Source of the DNA: a virus
IMG/VR virus record: IMGVR_UViG_3300036770_005084
Location: 1 to 64,000 of that record
Length of the DNA: 64,000 nt
Strand: one strand, 5' to 3'
The notes under the pieces are model-generated. The model saw only the letters and a list, made by a program, of their open reading frames with translations. It made no database searches and was not told the DNA's origin. Below, one piece after another: positions 48,702 through 63,792 of the stretch (the stretch's first letter is position 1; the number at the start of each line of letters is the position of its first letter). Made by a program: the position numbers and the translations under genes.

Positions 48702-50117
48702 ATGTTCCTTTCAGAACAATTGCAGAGAAAGTGGGAACCACTTCTTGAAGCAAATGGTTTAGAAAAAATTTCTGATCCATACAAGAAGGCAGTTACCGCA
48801 GTTCTGCTCGAAAACCAAGAAAGATTTCTAAAAGAAGAGAGAGGTTTCCTTGCGGAAGCAACTCCAAATATCAATACTGATCCAAGTGCAACTGGTGCTG
48901 CTGGTTTCTCTGGGGGTGCATCAACTCCAGTAGCAGGTTTTGACCCAGTTCTAATCTCACTCATCAGACGTTCAATGCCAAATCTTGTGGCATATGATCT
49001 TGCTGGTGTTCAACCAATGAATGGTCCTACAGGACTCATCTTCGCAATGCGTTCTACTTATCAGAACCAGAATGGTGAGGAAGCACTTTACAATGAACCA
49101 GATACTTCATACTCTGGACAAGATGATGGATTCGACCTTGCTCAAGGTGGATATGTTTCAGGTTCAAGTGGTGCATCTGTAGGTTTTGGTACTACCGGAT
49201 TTATTGGTGGTGGTTCTGCTGCTGGTAGCAACCCTGCTAGTCTAAATGGTGGTGCTGGCACTACCTATAGAGTTGGTCAGGGTATGAGCACTCAAGCTGC
49301 TGAGGCACTTGGTGGTGAAGATGGTGATCACTTCAACCAGATGGGATTCAGCATTGAGAAGATTGCTGTTACTGCAAAGTCAAGAGCACTCAAGGCTGAG
49401 TACACCCTAGAACTCGCACAAGACCTCAAGGCAATCCATGGTCTTGATGCTGAAGCAGAACTAGCAAATATCCTCTCAACCGAGATCCTTGCTGAGATCA
49501 ACCGTGAAGTTATCCGCACCATCTATAAGGTTGCAGAACCTGGTGCTCAAACTAACGTAGCAACTCAAGGTGTATTTGACCTAGACGTTGATTCCAACGG
49601 TCGTTGGTCTGTAGAGAAGTTCAAAGGTCTTCTTTTCCAACTTGAGAGAGATGCTAACGCAATTGCTCAAAGAACTCGTAGAGGAAAGGGCAACACAATT
49701 CTGTGTTCTGCTGACGTTGCATCTGCTCTTACCATGGCAGGTCTTCTAGACTATACCCCAGCACTCAACACCAACCTAAGTGTTGATGACACTGGCAATA
49801 CCTTTGCTGGAGTACTCAACGGCAAGTTTAAGGTATATATTGATCCTTATTCAGCAAACCTTGCTGCTGAGCAGTATTACGTTGTTGGTTATAAGGGTAG
49901 CAATCCTTATGATGCAGGTCTATTCTACTGCCCATATGTTCCTCTCCAAATGGTTCGTGCCGTTGGTCAGGACACCTTCCAACCAAAGATTGGATTCAAG
50001 ACTCGTTACGGAATGGTTGCAAACCCATTCGCAGAGGGAACCAATGCTGGTCTTGGAGCAATCAAAGCAGGTTCAAACCGTTACTACAGAAGAGTAAAGG
50101 TTCTAAACCTAATGTGA
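48702..50117 (+). CDS. gp23: Major capsid protein gp23
   Basis: GVQPMNGPTGLIFAMR, SRALKAEYTLELAQDL, QPKIGFKTRYG. Confidence 0.98.
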   Translation: MFLSEQLQRKWEPLLEANGLEKISDPYKKAVTAVLLENQERFLKEERGFLAEATPNINTDPSATGAAGFSGGASTPVAGFDPVLISLIRRSMPNLVAYDLAGVQPMNGPTGLIFAMRSTYQNQNGEEALYNEPDTSYSGQDDGFDLAQGGYVSGSSGASVGFGTTGFIGGGSAAGSNPASLNGGAGTTYRVGQGMSTQAAEALGGEDGDHFNQMGFSIEKIAVTAKSRALKAEYTLELAQDLKAIHGLDAEAELANILSTEILAEINREVIRTIYKVAEPGAQTNVATQGVFDLDVDSNGRWSVEKFKGLLFQLERDANAIAQRTRRGKGNTILCSADVASALTMAGLLDYTPALNTNLSVDDTGNTFAGVLNGKFKVYIDPYSANLAAEQYYVVGYKGSNPYDAGLFYCPYVPLQMVRAVGQDTFQPKIGFKTRYGMVANPFAEGTNAGLGAIKAGSNRYYRRVKVLNLM

Positions 50118-57028: not shown

Positions 57029-57694
57029 ATGAAACTTTCTGATAATACCCTGACAATTCTAAAAAACTTTTCTTCTATTAATCAATCAATCCTAGTTAAG
57101 TCTGGATCTAAACTAAGGACTATTTCTATTCTAAAAAATATTTTTGCAGAAGCAGAAGTAGCAGAAACATTCCCTAGAGATTTTGCTATCTATGACCTAT
57201 CAGAATTTCTAAGTGGTCTTAGTTTGCACCAAGATCCAGATCTTGACTTTTCACAAGACTCTCATGTAATTATTAGAGAGGGAAAACGAAAAGTAAAATA
57301 CTTTTATGCCGATCCTGAAGTTATCGTTTCTCCACCAGAAAAAGAAATTACACTACCATCCCAAGATGTATGTTTTCAACTTGAGCATTCTCAATTAGAC
57401 AAACTTAAGAAAGCATCTTCAGTTTACAAACTTCCAGACGTTTCTGCTATTGGTGAATCCGGTGTAATTCGTTTGGTTGTTCGTGATAAAAATAATGACA
57501 CATCAACTGAATATTCTATTGTTGTTGGTGAAACAGATGAAAATTTTGTTTTTAACTTTAAAGATGAAAACATTAAAATTATCCCAGGAAGTTATGATGT
57601 AATAATTTCGCAGAAACTATCTGCTAAGTTTGTAAATTCAAAATATAATATTACTTACTATATTGCATTGGAACCTGATTCTACTTTTGGTTAA
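57029..57694 (+). CDS. gp45: Sliding clamp gp45
   Basis: LKNFSSINQSI, FAIYDLSEFL, YYIALE. Confidence 0.95.
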   Translation: MKLSDNTLTILKNFSSINQSILVKSGSKLRTISILKNIFAEAEVAETFPRDFAIYDLSEFLSGLSLHQDPDLDFSQDSHVIIREGKRKVKYFYADPEVIVSPPEKEITLPSQDVCFQLEHSQLDKLKKASSVYKLPDVSAIGESGVIRLVVRDKNNDTSTEYSIVVGETDENFVFNFKDENIKIIPGSYDVIISQKLSAKFVNSKYNITYYIALEPDSTFG

Positions 57695-58206
57695 TGAATA
57701 TTTTTGTCACTTCTCCCTGGCCTGCTGAAAGTGCTGTTTGTCTTCCAGATAAACATATCGTTAAAATGCCTCTAGAGTGCTGCCAGATGCTTTCTATTGT
57801 TGCATCTGAGAAATGGGGATATGGTTACGGTACTCTCCCTAAGGCAGATGGAACTCCTTATAAAACCGAAAAGGGTGCATTTAGAAATCATCCTTGTACC
57901 AAGTGGGCAATGGAAAGTATTCATAATGCCTATTGGTTAATCAAGTGGGGACTGAACTTGTCTGATGAATACTGTCTTCGGTATAATAAGACTCACTCCT
58001 GTTACAACACTCTTGTGGAGGCATACTACCTGTTTCCAAAGGGTAAGATTACAGAAGTGACTCCATTTGCTCGTGCTATGCCTGAGGAATGGAAATTTGA
58101 TAGCACTATTGATACATTTGAAGCATATCGAAGATACATTGCATCTAAACCTTGGGTATCTGAAAATTATCTTCGTATGCCACAACGCAAACCTGATTGG
58201 GTATAA
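57694..58206 (+). CDS. Pyrimidine-dimer DNA glycosylase / endonuclease V family protein
   Basis: MNIF...DKHIVKMPLECCQMLS, NHPCTKW, EY..RY.K.H. Confidence 0.7.
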   Translation: MNIFVTSPWPAESAVCLPDKHIVKMPLECCQMLSIVASEKWGYGYGTLPKADGTPYKTEKGAFRNHPCTKWAMESIHNAYWLIKWGLNLSDEYCLRYNKTHSCYNTLVEAYYLFPKGKITEVTPFARAMPEEWKFDSTIDTFEAYRRYIASKPWVSENYLRMPQRKPDWV

Positions 58207-58209
58207 ATT

Positions 58210-59154
58210 ATGACAAGTGAATTTCTTTTTGTGGAAAAATATCGTCCGAAAGTAATTGACGATTGTATTCTTCCGGATGAAACTAAAAAAATATTTAAGG
58301 AGTTTGTTGCTAAAGGAGAAATTCCAAATCTTCTTTTATCAGGACCTCCAGGGATTGGTAAAACTACAATTGCAAAAGCACTATGCAATGAACTAGGAGC
58401 AGATTTTTATGTCATCAACGGATCCGACGAAGGACGTTTCTTGGATACTGTACGGAACCAAGCAAAAAACTTTGCTTCGACCGTCTCACTTACGGGATCT
58501 TCTAAACACAAAGTCATCATCATCGATGAGGCAGATAACACAGGGAACGACGTACAACTCCTATTGCGGGCAAATATTGAGACATTTTATAGCAACTGCC
58601 GATTCATCTTTACCTGTAACTATAAAAACAAAATCATCGAACCTCTTCACTCCCGATGTGCAGTCATTGACTTCACTCTCAGAGGAAAAGAGAAAGTACA
58701 ACTTGCAGGGAATTTCTTTCAGAGGTTACGATTTATCCTTGATCAGGAAAAGATTGAGTATGATGAAAAAGTCGTTGCGGAACTCGTATCCAAACATTTT
58801 CCCGATTTTCGACGTGTTCTAAATGAATGCCAAAAATATTCTTCAAGTGGAAAGATTGACTCTGGAATTTTATCCTCATTAGTAGATATAAACGTCAGTA
58901 GTCTAATTAAAGATATGAAGGATAAGAAGTTCAATGATGTTAGAAAATGGGTTGTATCAAATTTAGATAATGATCCAACGACATTACTTAGAAAAATTTA
59001 CGATGCTGGATATACTTCCTTAAAACCAGAATCGATTCCTTCGGCAGTATTGATTATTGGAAAATATCAATATCAATCTGCATTTGTTGCTGATCAAGAA
59101 ATTAATCTCTTGGCAGCATTGACAGAAATTATGTGTGAGTGTGAATTTAAATGA
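58210..59154 (+). CDS. gp44: Clamp loader large subunit gp44
   Basis: VEKYRP, GPPGIGKTT, DEAD, SRC, PDFRR. Confidence 0.97.
   Translation: MTSEFLFVEKYRPKVIDDCILPDETKKIFKEFVAKGEIPNLLLSGPPGIGKTTIAKALCNELGADFYVINGSDEGRFLDTVRNQAKNFASTVSLTGSSKHKVIIIDEADNTGNDVQLLLRANIETFYSNCRFIFTCNYKNKIIEPLHSRCAVIDFTLRGKEKVQLAGNFFQRLRFILDQEKIEYDEKVVAELVSKHFPDFRRVLNECQKYSSSGKIDSGILSSLVDINVSSLIKDMKDKKFNDVRKWVVSNLDNDPTTLLRKIYDAGYTSLKPESIPSAVLIIGKYQYQSAFVADQEINLLAALTEIMCECEFK
58409..58822 (+). CDS. Candidate overprinted gene (137 aa) in the +1 frame of gp44
   Basis: AGGAG at 58395-58399, 9 nt before the ATG; the host-frame GC3 rise begins at the ORF start. Confidence 0.5.
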   Translation: MSSTDPTKDVSWILYGTKQKTLLRPSHLRDLLNTKSSSSMRQITQGTTYNSYCGQILRHFIATADSSLPVTIKTKSSNLFTPDVQSLTSLSEEKRKYNLQGISFRGYDLSLIRKRLSMMKKSLRNSYPNIFPIFDVF

Positions 59155-59318
59155 AGAAAAAGACAACCCCAGAAAATGTTAATGAAGCAAATAATGCTTT
59201 GTTTAAGTCAAAGATGAATATTCCAGAAGCAGCAGAACATTGCGGAATGACCATAAAAGAAATGAAAATGACTTTTACAGAGTATCTAAAATATCATCCT
59301 CCAACTTATGAAAATTGA
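59151..59318 (+). CDS. Small HTH-like protein (55 aa)
   Basis: Hand-translated ...MNIPEAAEHCGMTIKEMKMTF...; overlaps both neighbouring genes. Confidence 0.7.
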   Translation: MKKKTTPENVNEANNALFKSKMNIPEAAEHCGMTIKEMKMTFTEYLKYHPPTYEN

Positions 59319-59694
59319 ACTGAAGGATTGGTTAAACTCAATTAACCAAACTAAGCATAATATTATTGATGAAGATTTGCAGGTGGAAAAAGAATATCCT
59401 CCTTATATTATTAATAAATGTATGTCTGGATATATTGATACTATAATGCTTGCAAACGAAATAAATCTTCTTCCAAGATTGGACAAAAAACTACAATATG
59501 ATTTTTATATAAATATTGTTAGGAAAAGGAAAAGATTTTCTCCTTGGGTCCGAAAAGAAAAAATCGAAAATCTTGAATGTATTAAATCTTACTATGGTTA
59601 TAGTAATGAAAAAGCAGAACAAGTGTTGAAGATTTTATCAACTGAACAAATTAACTTTATCAAATCAAAAACTGAAACTGGAGGAATGAAATGA
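59308..59694 (+). CDS. gp62: Clamp loader small subunit gp62
   Basis: LKDWLNSIN, YPPYIINKC, QYDFY, YYGYSNEKA. Confidence 0.93.
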   Translation: MKIELKDWLNSINQTKHNIIDEDLQVEKEYPPYIINKCMSGYIDTIMLANEINLLPRLDKKLQYDFYINIVRKRKRFSPWVRKEKIENLECIKSYYGYSNEKAEQVLKILSTEQINFIKSKTETGGMK

Positions 59695-60131
59695 GTGTTG
59701 TGACCGAACCTGAAGTTAAGTGGCAACAAAATCAAATGATTGAAGTTCTGCTTAATGAACCTGATGATTTCCTAAAAGTGCGAGAAACACTTACTAGGAT
59801 TGGGGTTGCCTCTCGAAAGGAGAAAAAAATATACCAGTCTTGCCATATCTTGCATAAGCAGGGCAGATATTATTTGGTTCACTTTAAGGAGTTATTTGCA
59901 CTTGATGGAAAACATGCAAATATCACTGTCAATGATATTCAACGAAGAAATCGTATTGCGCAATTATTGGCAGATTGGGGTTTAATTACTATTGTAACTC
60001 CAGAAAAAATCCAAGATATTGCTCCTTTAAATCAAATTAAAGTTATTGCATATAAGGAAAAAGGTGAGTGGATTCTAGAAACCAAATACAATATTGGTTC
60101 TAAAAAGAAGCATTTGGTAGAACCCGAATGA
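59691..60131 (+). CDS. regA: Translational repressor RegA
   Basis: DDFLKVRETLTRIG, QSCHILHKQGRYY, HFKELF. Confidence 0.97.
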   Translation: MSVVTEPEVKWQQNQMIEVLLNEPDDFLKVRETLTRIGVASRKEKKIYQSCHILHKQGRYYLVHFKELFALDGKHANITVNDIQRRNRIAQLLADWGLITIVTPEKIQDIAPLNQIKVIAYKEKGEWILETKYNIGSKKKHLVEPE

Positions 60132-61300: not shown

Positions 61301-63792
61301 AATTTTATACCAACATAGTTCTTGTCGGAAATGAAATTCTTTCTAGAGGATATGATAATGGAGAGCATTTTAAAAATAGGGAAATGTTTTATCCAAAACT
61401 TTATTTGAGTACAAATAAGCAAACAAACTATAAAACTCTTGAAGGAAACTATGTTGAGGAAATAAATCCAGGAACAATTAGGGAGACGAGAGAGTTCATT
61501 GAAAAATATGAAAACGTAGAAAACTTTAATCTCTATGGTAATACGAGATATATTAATCAATATATCTCAGATAATTATCCTGAAGATCAAATTAAATTTG
61601 ACATCTCTAAAATTAAATTAGTTACAATTGACATTGAGGTGGCATCAGAAAATGGATTCCCAGACGTTAGATCTTGTCAAGAACAAATACTTACAATTTC
61701 AATCCAAAACTATACTACTAAAAATATAATAACCTGGGGGTTACATGAATTTAATAATACAAATCCAAAGGTGCATTATGTTAAATGTGATAATGAAGAA
61801 GACTTACTGAGAAAATTTGTAGAGTATTGGTATTATGAACCTCCAGAAGTTATTACGGGATGGAATTGTGAATTATATGACATTCCATATTTGTGTTCTA
61901 GGATTTCTAAAGTTATTGGTGAAAAGCAAGTTAAAAAATTATCTCCTTGGGGAATTGTCACTGAAAATGAGATTCTAATAACCGGAAGAAAATATCTAAA
62001 GTTTGATATTGCTGGAATTACAGTATTAGATTATTTGGATCTTTACAAAAAGTTTACATATACTAATCAAGAGTCTTATAGACTAGATCATATTGTATCT
62101 GTAGAACTTGGTGAGAAAAAATTGGATCACTCAGAGTACGATACATTTAAAGAGTTTTATACAAATGATTGGCAAAAATTTGTAGAATACAACATCAAAG
62201 ACGTTCAACTCGTTGATCGTCTTGAGGATAAGATGAAACTAATTGAACTTGCCATTACTATGGCATATGATTCAAAAAGTAATTATAATGATGTATTCTA
62301 TCAAGTTAGAATGTGGGATTCAATTATCTACAATTATCTTCGCAAAAGGAATATTGTAATTCCATTTAAAAAGGAAAGTAGGAAGGATCAAAAATATGCT
62401 GGAGCATATGTAAAAGAACCAGTTCCTGGTAAGTATGATTGGGTGGTTAGTTTTGACTTAAACAGTCTATATCCACACCTGATCATGCAATATAATATTT
62501 CTCCAGAAACACTTGTAGATAAACGACATCCAAATGTAAATGTCGATAAAATTCTAAAACAAGAATTGGATTTTTCTGAATATGATCAATATGCCGTATG
62601 TGCGAATGGTGCATTATATCGAAAAGATATTCGGGGATTTCTTCCGGAGTTGATGGAGAAAATGTATAGTGATCGAGTAATCTTCAAAAAGAAGATGATT
62701 GATGCAAAAAAAGAATATGAAAAAAATCCATCTCAAGAAATCTTAAAGGAAATCTCAAGATGCAATAATATCCAAATGGCAAAAAAGATTTCTCTTAACT
62801 CTGCTTATGGTGCTGTTGGAAACGAATATTTTAGATACTTTCGTATCGAAAATGCAGAGGCAGTAACTTTATCTGGACAGGTTTCAATCCGATGGATTGA
62901 AAATAAAATGAATTCCTACCTAAATAAACTTCTTAAAACGGAGAATGTTGATTATGTTATTGCTTCAGATACTGATTCTATTTACCTTAATATGGGTCCT
63001 TTGGTTGAACGTATATACAAAGGAAGAGAGAAGACTACTGAGGGCATTGTCACATTCCTTGATAAGATCTGTAAGGTGGAACTTGAAAAGTATATTGAAA
63101 GTTGCTACCAAGAATTGTCTGAGTATGTAAATGCATACGATCAGAAAATGAGTATGAAGAGAGAGAACATTGCTGAACGTGGAATCTGGACCGCAAAGAA
63201 AAGATATATTCTCAATGTTTGGGATAGTGAGGGTGTCAGATATTCTGAACCAAAATTAAAAATCATGGGTCTTGAGGCAGTAAAGTCATCAACTCCTGCA
63301 CCTTGTCGTCAAATGATTAAGGATGCCTTTAATATTATAATGACTAAAAGTGAAGATGATGTAATTGAGTTCATTAATGCAAGTAGAAAAAAATTCTATT
63401 CATTAACACCAGAAGAAATTTCATTTCCAAGATCTGCAAATAATATTGAAAAGTATAGATCAACCTCTACAATTTATATTAAAGGGTGTCCAATTCATAT
63501 TCGAGGGGTATTACTATACAATCACTATTTGAAAAAGAATTCACTTGAAAATAAATATCCTCTCATTAACAATGGAGAAAAGATAAAATTTTGTTACCTG
63601 AAAACCCCAAACACAATTCATGAGAACGTAATATCATTCATTCAACAATTTCCAAAAGAACTTAATATTCAAAGATATGTTGATTATGAACTTCAATTTG
63701 AAAAAAGTTTTATTGAACCATTAAAAACTATTCTAAATTGTATTGGATGGGGAATCGAGAAAACTAATACATTGGAGTCTTTATTTGGATGA
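61297..63792 (+). CDS. gp43: Family B DNA polymerase gp43
   Basis: DIEV exonuclease motif, FDLNSLYP, KISLNSAYG, SDTDS, KKRY; uninterrupted. Confidence 0.98.
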   Translation: MKFYTNIVLVGNEILSRGYDNGEHFKNREMFYPKLYLSTNKQTNYKTLEGNYVEEINPGTIRETREFIEKYENVENFNLYGNTRYINQYISDNYPEDQIKFDISKIKLVTIDIEVASENGFPDVRSCQEQILTISIQNYTTKNIITWGLHEFNNTNPKVHYVKCDNEEDLLRKFVEYWYYEPPEVITGWNCELYDIPYLCSRISKVIGEKQVKKLSPWGIVTENEILITGRKYLKFDIAGITVLDYLDLYKKFTYTNQESYRLDHIVSVELGEKKLDHSEYDTFKEFYTNDWQKFVEYNIKDVQLVDRLEDKMKLIELAITMAYDSKSNYNDVFYQVRMWDSIIYNYLRKRNIVIPFKKESRKDQKYAGAYVKEPVPGKYDWVVSFDLNSLYPHLIMQYNISPETLVDKRHPNVNVDKILKQELDFSEYDQYAVCANGALYRKDIRGFLPELMEKMYSDRVIFKKKMIDAKKEYEKNPSQEILKEISRCNNIQMAKKISLNSAYGAVGNEYFRYFRIENAEAVTLSGQVSIRWIENKMNSYLNKLLKTENVDYVIASDTDSIYLNMGPLVERIYKGREKTTEGIVTFLDKICKVELEKYIESCYQELSEYVNAYDQKMSMKRENIAERGIWTAKKRYILNVWDSEGVRYSEPKLKIMGLEAVKSSTPAPCRQMIKDAFNIIMTKSEDDVIEFINASRKKFYSLTPEEISFPRSANNIEKYRSTSTIYIKGCPIHIRGVLLYNHYLKKNSLENKYPLINNGEKIKFCYLKTPNTIHENVISFIQQFPKELNIQRYVDYELQFEKSFIEPLKTILNCIGWGIEKTNTLESLFG

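Follow-up and report, generated by a model that had tools for sequence, protein, structure and literature searches.

A candidate +1-frame gene overprinted on clamp-loader gene g44 in cyanomyoviruses

The stretch of viral DNA analysed here, referred to as the window, comprises positions 1 to 64,000 (64,000 nt) of IMG/VR record IMGVR_UViG_3300036770_005084 and belongs to an AT-rich, T4-like cyanophage (31.6% GC). The gene for the clamp-loader subunit gp44 lies on the plus strand at 58210–59154 and encodes 314 amino acids, with Pfam matches to AAA (1.9e-19) and Gp44_lid (1.1e-16). Its product was 74–86% identical in amino-acid sequence to those of 80 IMG/VR homologues, and among cultured phages S-SRM01, a phage of freshwater Synechococcus, had the nearest g44 (76% nucleotide identity). 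Upstream lie gp45 (57029–57694) and, between gp45 and gp44, a denV-like gene for a pyrimidine-dimer glycosylase (57694–58206, plus strand; Pfam Pyr_excise, 1e-15), the GC3 of which (0.32) is above that of the neighbouring core genes. The arrangement differs in P-SSM2, where denV sits downstream of g44. On the other side of gp44, a 55-aa ORF (59151–59318, plus strand), the ATG of which overlaps the gp44 stop codon (ATGA), matched phrog_1920 of unknown function (4e-30) and is the conserved small gene found in cyanophages between g44 and g62. It is followed by gp62 (59308–59694) and regA (59691–60131).

Nested in gp44, on the same strand and in the +1 frame, is an ORF of 137 codons with an ATG start (58409–58822). 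The initial annotation had described this ORF together with an AGGAG motif 9 nt before its ATG, and both were located at the coordinates it gave. The Shine-Dalgarno (SD)-like AGGAG occupies 58395–58399 and is separated by a 9-nt spacer from the ATG (58409–58411), which is formed by the TAT|G of gp44 Tyr67-Val68. Four codons 5' of the ATG the +1 frame is closed by a TAG (58394–58396, gp44 codon index 61). Three segments of the ORF can be distinguished: a strongly protected core (58409–58632, gp44 codon indices 66–140), which overlaps the Walker B, sensor 1 and SRC region of gp44; a less protected middle (58633–58773, indices 141–187); and a variable C-terminal tail with the TAA stop at 58820–58822 (58774–58822), the position at which the ORF ends differing among homologues.

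Among the approximately 18,900 codons of the window, where +1 stops occur at a frequency of 0.077 per codon, the 141-codon stop-free +1 run at this locus was the longest run in any same-strand alternative frame. Synonymous shuffling of the whole of gp44 reached a run of 141 codons at P = 0.005, and shuffling of the ORF region only left that region stop-free at P = 0.003. Judged against the shuffles, run length is suggestive and not decisive alone. Internal out-of-frame sites combining an SD and an ATG numbered 61 in the window, and the g44 ORF was the longest that was truly nested (next-longest 58 codons, median 10). A second nested +1 ORF with SD and ATG, of 58 codons, was seen in gp43 (62954–63130, plus strand), where it lies in a GC3-rich patch with a 60-codon GC3 maximum of 0.43. 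In the major capsid gene (48702–50117, plus strand), 105 successive codons of the +1 frame are free of stops and GC3 reaches 0.47 in a patch, which may be simply the codon bias of a highly expressed gene.

The GC3 of gp44 was 0.14 over the 66 codons before the ORF, 0.42 over the 139 codons that overlap it and 0.21 over the 110 codons after it. The 60-codon maximum of 0.50 was the highest of any credible gene in the window, the other core genes having GC3 values of 0.11–0.22. The hand count that had first drawn attention to this change was correct for the codons after the ATG (28 of 60 ending in G or C) and off by one for those before it (6 of 50, where 5 had been counted). The rare codons CGG, TCG, ACG and CTC were present as claimed. 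An antisense gene under the region was considered and rejected, the minus-strand ORFs being merely 44–63 aa long. An internal promoter was likewise rejected, as promoter-like sites were no commoner than in shuffled sequences, and a search for a terminator at the locus found none.

Homologues were compared in three sets of IMG/VR loci: set 1, the 80 closest to the window (74–86% amino-acid identity); set 2, the 80 closest to P-SSM2; and set 3, the 80 closest to S-PM2 (79 alignable), which served as a control clade without the ORF. In addition, g44 genes from 14 cultured phages were compared. The sequences were aligned by codon and contained almost no indels. The wider clade referred to below (n=169) combines sets 1 and 2 with the first eight cultured phages.

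Scattered +1 stops among homologues would be expected of a chance ORF, as the initial annotation had pointed out, and most homologues lacked them. In the closest set, 62 of 81 sequences had no +1 stop over indices 64–187, and in the wider clade 140 of 169 had a frame that began at the same ATG and stayed open up to index 150 or beyond, the ORF being absent from the other 29. The ends of the ORF ranged over indices 151–228, common positions being 164, 188–191, 203 and 228, and its product over the family had a length of 85–162 aa; the index-203 stop of the window ORF was also found in loci L003, L009, L013 and L023. Among cultured phages, the ORF was carried by S-SRM01, DSL-LC02, DSL-LC03, S-CREM1 and P-SSM2 and, when checked separately, by S-SM2, S-SSM7, S-SKS1 and S-T4. 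Truncated versions were present in Syn30 and P-SSM4. In S-CAM9 the frame was open over indices 66–191 and the ATG was missing, while P-HM2 and S-PM2 had a closed +1 frame. Since it has been lost or truncated repeatedly, the ORF is not essential. No annotation of it was found in the inspected GenBank records of the cultured phages.

Selection on the frame was assessed by a stop-toggle test, in which 80 phylogenetically independent pairs were drawn from 161 sequences (sets 1 and 2 and the window) and were chosen regardless of ORF state. Over indices 67–140, 19 of 1329 gp44-synonymous differences created or removed a +1 stop (1.4%), as against 277 of 3252 in the flanks (8.5%; odds ratio 0.16, p=2e-23). 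The same region of set 3 gave 38 of 503 (7.6%; p=4e-10 versus the ORF clade). The density of +1 stops in the core was correspondingly low, at 0.005 versus 0.043–0.047 in the flanks and 0.033 in set 3. Over indices 141–187 stop density was 0.015 versus 0.043 in set 3, and the toggle rate (3.0%) was no different from that of set 3 (3.4%). Stop trinucleotides as such are not avoided, because +2-frame stops were dense throughout (0.10–0.14 per codon).

Codon choice within the region depended on the base that follows. In 81 sequences that were not selected for ORF state, leucine, isoleucine and valine codons in the region ended in A in 32% of cases before C or T, and in 5% and 3% of cases before A and G, respectively; NTG made up 1% before A and, where it is harmless, 23% before G. 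Neither the flanks nor the closed class showed any dependence of the L/I/V codon ending on the next base. Individual positions followed the same pattern. At index 80 there were 54 cases of GTA followed by C (Arg = CGN), and the valine codon was GTC in all nine sequences in which A (AGR Arg) followed. At index 118, NTA was followed by C in 59 cases, while the codon ended in T or C in five of five cases before A, and index 172 covaried with its neighbouring codon as indices 80 and 118 did. Covariation was also assessed with independent pairs of ORF-bearing sequences; since that test is partly circular below index 150, the unselected tests were relied on. The window genome, despite its AT-richness, used the majority codon of the clade at 63 of 71 comparable core codons. 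At the level of codon choice, these signals are diagnostic and demonstrate that the +1 frame is kept open by selection.

The initial annotation had also proposed that the SD and ATG should be conserved among homologues, and both proved to be kept through synonymous constraint on gp44. The tyrosine codon that supplies the ATG was TAT in 166 of 166 clade sequences, while the share of TAC was 17–80% at other conserved tyrosine columns and 34% overall. The valine codon that follows was GTC in 134 of 169 sequences; GTA at this position would give an immediate TAA in the +1 frame. Of 66 homologues in which the frame was open or nearly so, 65 had GGA or GGG as the glycine codon within the SD (index 62); of 15 closed ones, 9 had GGT or GGC, the share of GGT being 44–74% at the four N-terminal glycine columns. 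The SD motif is not background, because an SD core precedes only 10 of the 49 genes in the window. On the flank tree, loss of the ORF was accompanied by loss of the SD in 5.5 independent pairs versus 0.2 in the opposite direction (sign-test median p=0.06) and by loss of the GC3 excess in 7.9 versus 1.2 (median p=0.04). Taken from the gp44 codons themselves, this evidence demonstrates that the ORF start and its SD are under synonymous constraint. The mRNA structure calculated at the start (-5.6 kcal/mol) was weaker than in neighbouring segments (-9 to -11 kcal/mol), but this accessibility signal is weak because the local minimum is close to the gene mean of -6.7 kcal/mol.

Constraint on the amino acids of the +1 product was less evident. 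Suppressed synonymous variation in gp44, another prediction of the initial annotation, was found in the closest clade and was not significant in the P-SSM2-like one: over indices 67–140 the synonymous difference in set 1 was 0.200 versus 0.262 and 0.267 in the two flanks (0.75-fold, p=0.0017), and in set 2 it was 0.239 versus 0.280 and 0.258 (0.9-fold, p=0.17), with a value of 0.95 times the flanks in set 3. There was no suppression over indices 141–187. The +1 replacements induced by gp44-synonymous changes were not clearly conservative. Their mean BLOSUM score was -0.48 in set 1 versus -0.77 for the possible alternatives, and -0.72 versus -0.90 in set 2, where the gap was no larger than in the 3' flank. 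In the alignment of the +1 proteins, mean column identity was 49% and very few residues were invariant. Constraint at this level is weak, as measured from these alignments.

The product predicted from the window is a basic protein (pI ~10) of 137 aa and 15.7 kDa, rich in serine, threonine and leucine; the median pI of the family was 10.5. In lineages that lack the ORF, the +1 frame of g44 gave a composition close to this one. AlphaFold2, run with 105 sequences, gave a pLDDT of 51 and a pTM of 0.20 and no confident fold, one helix (residues 109–126) being confident. Searches of Pfam and PHROG with the +1 product returned no match, the ESM Atlas gave nothing useful, and a search of 5.8 billion proteins returned unnamed calls of the same ORF, together with chimeras, and nothing else. 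Neither a signal sequence nor a lipobox was found in the product. A clamp-binding motif at the C-terminus of the window product (…PIFDVF) was considered and discarded, as conservation does not extend to the tail. Such a profile is in keeping with a young and disordered product of overprinting, and it leaves room for a reading in which translation alone matters.

An overprinted gene in the +1 frame of g44 is probably present at this locus, and the unannotated nested protein gene proposed in the initial annotation draws its support from the openness of the frame and the conservation of the start and SD. We infer that the +1 frame is translated and that selection acts on its product and not on translation as such. 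Ribosomes would most likely initiate at the internal GGAG-N9-ATG (58395–58411) of the g44 mRNA, and translation would yield a basic, Ser/Thr/Leu-rich and largely unstructured protein of 85–162 aa. Its first 75–90 residues would form the maintained core, overlapping the most conserved part of gp44, and would be followed by a C-terminal tail of variable length. The ORF is common to a large cyanomyovirus clade and has been lost several times. As to function, our guess is an accessory factor that the phage can dispense with and that is expressed together with the replication genes. A more specific role, that of a small basic replisome regulator acting on the clamp, the loader or DNA, is rather unlikely; under it, nesting in the loader gene would give the product a fixed proportion to gp44.

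The locus was found in four DNA sequencing runs of one study. Two RNA-library runs contained about 5% of the sampled words, and contigs of relatives from the RNA libraries (at least 90% likeness) covered parts of 58207–58826; these contigs are uninformative as to frame, transcript ends and expression level, and the parts of the locus that they leave uncovered carry no meaning. A search of the full-text literature for a report of a g44-nested gene found none.

It may be asked whether there is a gene here at all, or instead a patch of C-rich third positions in the AAA+ core that was spread by recombination, with the edge of the GC3 rise marking a recombination boundary. The GC3 jump had been taken in the initial annotation as a sign of dual coding. 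The S-PM2-like phages of set 3 undid that argument: their GC3 was 0.53 in the region versus 0.39 and 0.40 in the flanks, and their mean excess (0.138) was close to that of the ORF-bearing sequences (0.143), although none of the 79 was open, an ATG stood at the site in one of 79 and GGR at the SD glycine in 7 of 79. Because these phages show the rise without having the ORF, it is not diagnostic. Nor is GC3 the cause of the openness of the frame, set 3 having higher GC3 and yet no open member; high GC3 alone leaves 4.3 +1 stops on average in the region of these sequences. A subgroup of S-PM2-like loci (L177–L197, aligned to 58411–58773) reached a GC3 of 0.67–0.73 in the AAA+ core versus ~0.4 in the flanks, also without the ORF, and the core-specific excess of S-PM2-like g44 genes was explained by no hypothesis that was tried.

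Recombination has nevertheless left traces. The flanks and the centre gave conflicting trees, and the central 408 nt of the window were 92% identical to L023 while the flanks reached 77% at best. Over indices 141–203 the window shared an allele with L013 and L023 (synonymous difference 0.14–0.15 versus a median of 0.48), so recombination adds to the sharpness of the 3' edge. For the core, every ORF-bearing sequence had its lowest synonymous distance in indices 67–140, and because the distance profile of the window is typical of these members, no import specific to the window is needed. For the possibility raised at the outset, a recombined patch with boundaries unrelated to the ORF, speak the conflicting trees and the mosaic 3' half of the ORF; against it, the boundaries of identity and of composition in the window coincided with the ORF. 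The closed sequences formed one long-branched group in the central tree, a pattern that fits loss of the ORF and a subsequent decay or replacement of the allele.

Shuffling of the ORF region sequence by sequence gave modest values (P = 0.002–0.45), as a patch without a gene would. Such a patch does not, however, account for A-ending leucine, isoleucine and valine codons that are common exactly where they are harmless and that covary with the next base, nor for a sixfold deficit of stop toggles that is specific to the +1 frame. Composition likewise offers no explanation for the invariant TAT and the nearly invariant GGR, which lie at the edge of the ORF or outside it. On this balance an absence of any gene is unlikely.

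A different reading grants that ribosomes use the ORF and holds that the act of +1 translation, not the peptide, is what matters, through an effect on ribosome traffic, mRNA stability or the output of gp44. Selection would then fall solely on the start and on the absence of early stops, which agrees with the strength of selection on stops, ATG and SD beside the weak amino-acid constraint, with the lack of a predicted fold and with an ORF length that varies from 85 to 162 codons. A regulatory ORF, however, would not need 75–90 protected codons, and synonymous variation was reduced in the closest clade. Moreover, several aromatic residues of the +1 frame, namely tyrosines (TAC) at indices 80, 114, 117 and 118 and a tryptophan (TGG) at 77, are held by the choice of A-ending or G-ending codons, and no precedent in T4-like phages was found in the literature. 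We consider this reading improbable.

The fallback offered by the initial annotation, a programmed +1 frameshift near GAT-TTT-TAT that would fuse the gp44 N-terminus (Walker A) to the +1 frame in the manner of dnaX or prfB and give an alternative loader subunit, could draw on the T5 run of the window (GAT TTT TAT G), which could allow +1 re-pairing of tRNA-Phe, and on the AGGAG upstream, but is very improbable and was rejected for want of a conserved slippery site and for a frame that is closed just upstream: the pair of codons that precedes the ATG is variable (GATTAT 35, GATTTT 25, GACTAT 19, GATGTT 13, and others), the T5 run occurs in merely 25 of 140 ORF-bearing sequences, there is almost no room for a shift because a +1 stop stands 3–5 codons 5' of the ATG (at index 61 or 63) in 96 of the 140, including the window, and the 9-nt SD spacing is that of initiation, the SD that stimulates the prfB +1 shift lying at a spacing of roughly 3 nt. 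The chimeras of gp44 and the +1 frame in the protein database switch frame at differing places, as indel errors would. Four such calls (P0012, P0017, P0021 and P0022) join the two frames at four points, and two of them come from contigs of 180–252 kb. In the assemblies they appear to reflect either indel errors or naturally frameshifted variants of g44.

The overprinted gene remains the favoured reading, and the candidate is of interest because it lies in a core replication gene and is common to much of the cyanomyovirus group, the members of which infect the main picocyanobacteria of the ocean and lakes. It is present in phages that can be cultured and serve as models, such as P-SSM2, S-SM2, S-SSM7, S-T4 and S-SRM01. 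If the reading is correct, cyanomyoviruses would have an extra protein in their early or replication programme, and the locus would serve as a natural and well-sampled case of a gene born by overprinting and lost again several times. Were the product in addition a replisome regulator, it would represent a conserved gene that arose de novo within the catalytic core of an essential AAA+ gene in large dsDNA phages. The case also shows that dual coding is poorly indicated by a GC3 patch on its own; the useful signal is context-specific avoidance of stops.

Among known systems, the gene arrangement is comparable in form to that of phage lambda, where Rz1, the lipoprotein spanin that acts with its host gene in lysis, is embedded in the +1 frame of Rz. 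Like the gene proposed here, Rz1 is complete with its own start, sits out of frame inside a larger gene of the phage, on the same strand, and is translated from the shared mRNA. The host gene in cyanomyoviruses is, unlike Rz, a core replication ATPase, and the product, unlike Rz1, is without a signal sequence, a lipobox or a predicted fold; the Pfam and PHROG searches revealed no sequence relationship between the two. The E. coli dnaX gene, in which a -1 slip at a conserved heptamer with a stimulatory structure gives the truncated loader subunit (tau/gamma), is also a clamp-loader gene with a second product from an alternative frame, as is proposed for g44. The g44 ORF differs from it in having no conserved slippery site and a frame that is closed just 5' of an independent ATG. 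Genes of T4 give in-frame products by internal initiation from internal ribosome-binding sites, and an extra product from one mRNA would likewise arise from g44. Those of T4 are in frame and share the sequence of the parent protein, whereas the g44 ORF, being out of frame, has no sequence in common with gp44.

Overprinting is well known from phiX174, in which E lies within D and B within A, and from the L lysis gene of leviviruses. The g44 ORF resembles these in being a putative de novo +1 overprinting of an older, conserved gene, with a product that would be young, compositionally biased, poorly structured and fast-evolving. Those cases come from very small genomes under strong size pressure, whereas the cultured cyanomyovirus relatives here have genomes of 144–252 kb, and long nested genes are not expected in a large T4-like genome. 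Unlike them too, the g44 ORF runs across the segment of an AAA+ core in which conservation is highest. Tiny phages provide the classic cases of out-of-frame nested genes, and in large T4-like genomes such genes have rarely been sought or annotated. The present candidate is unusual in its position, at the catalytic core of a replication gene that is essential to large phages, and in its spread across the cyanomyoviruses.
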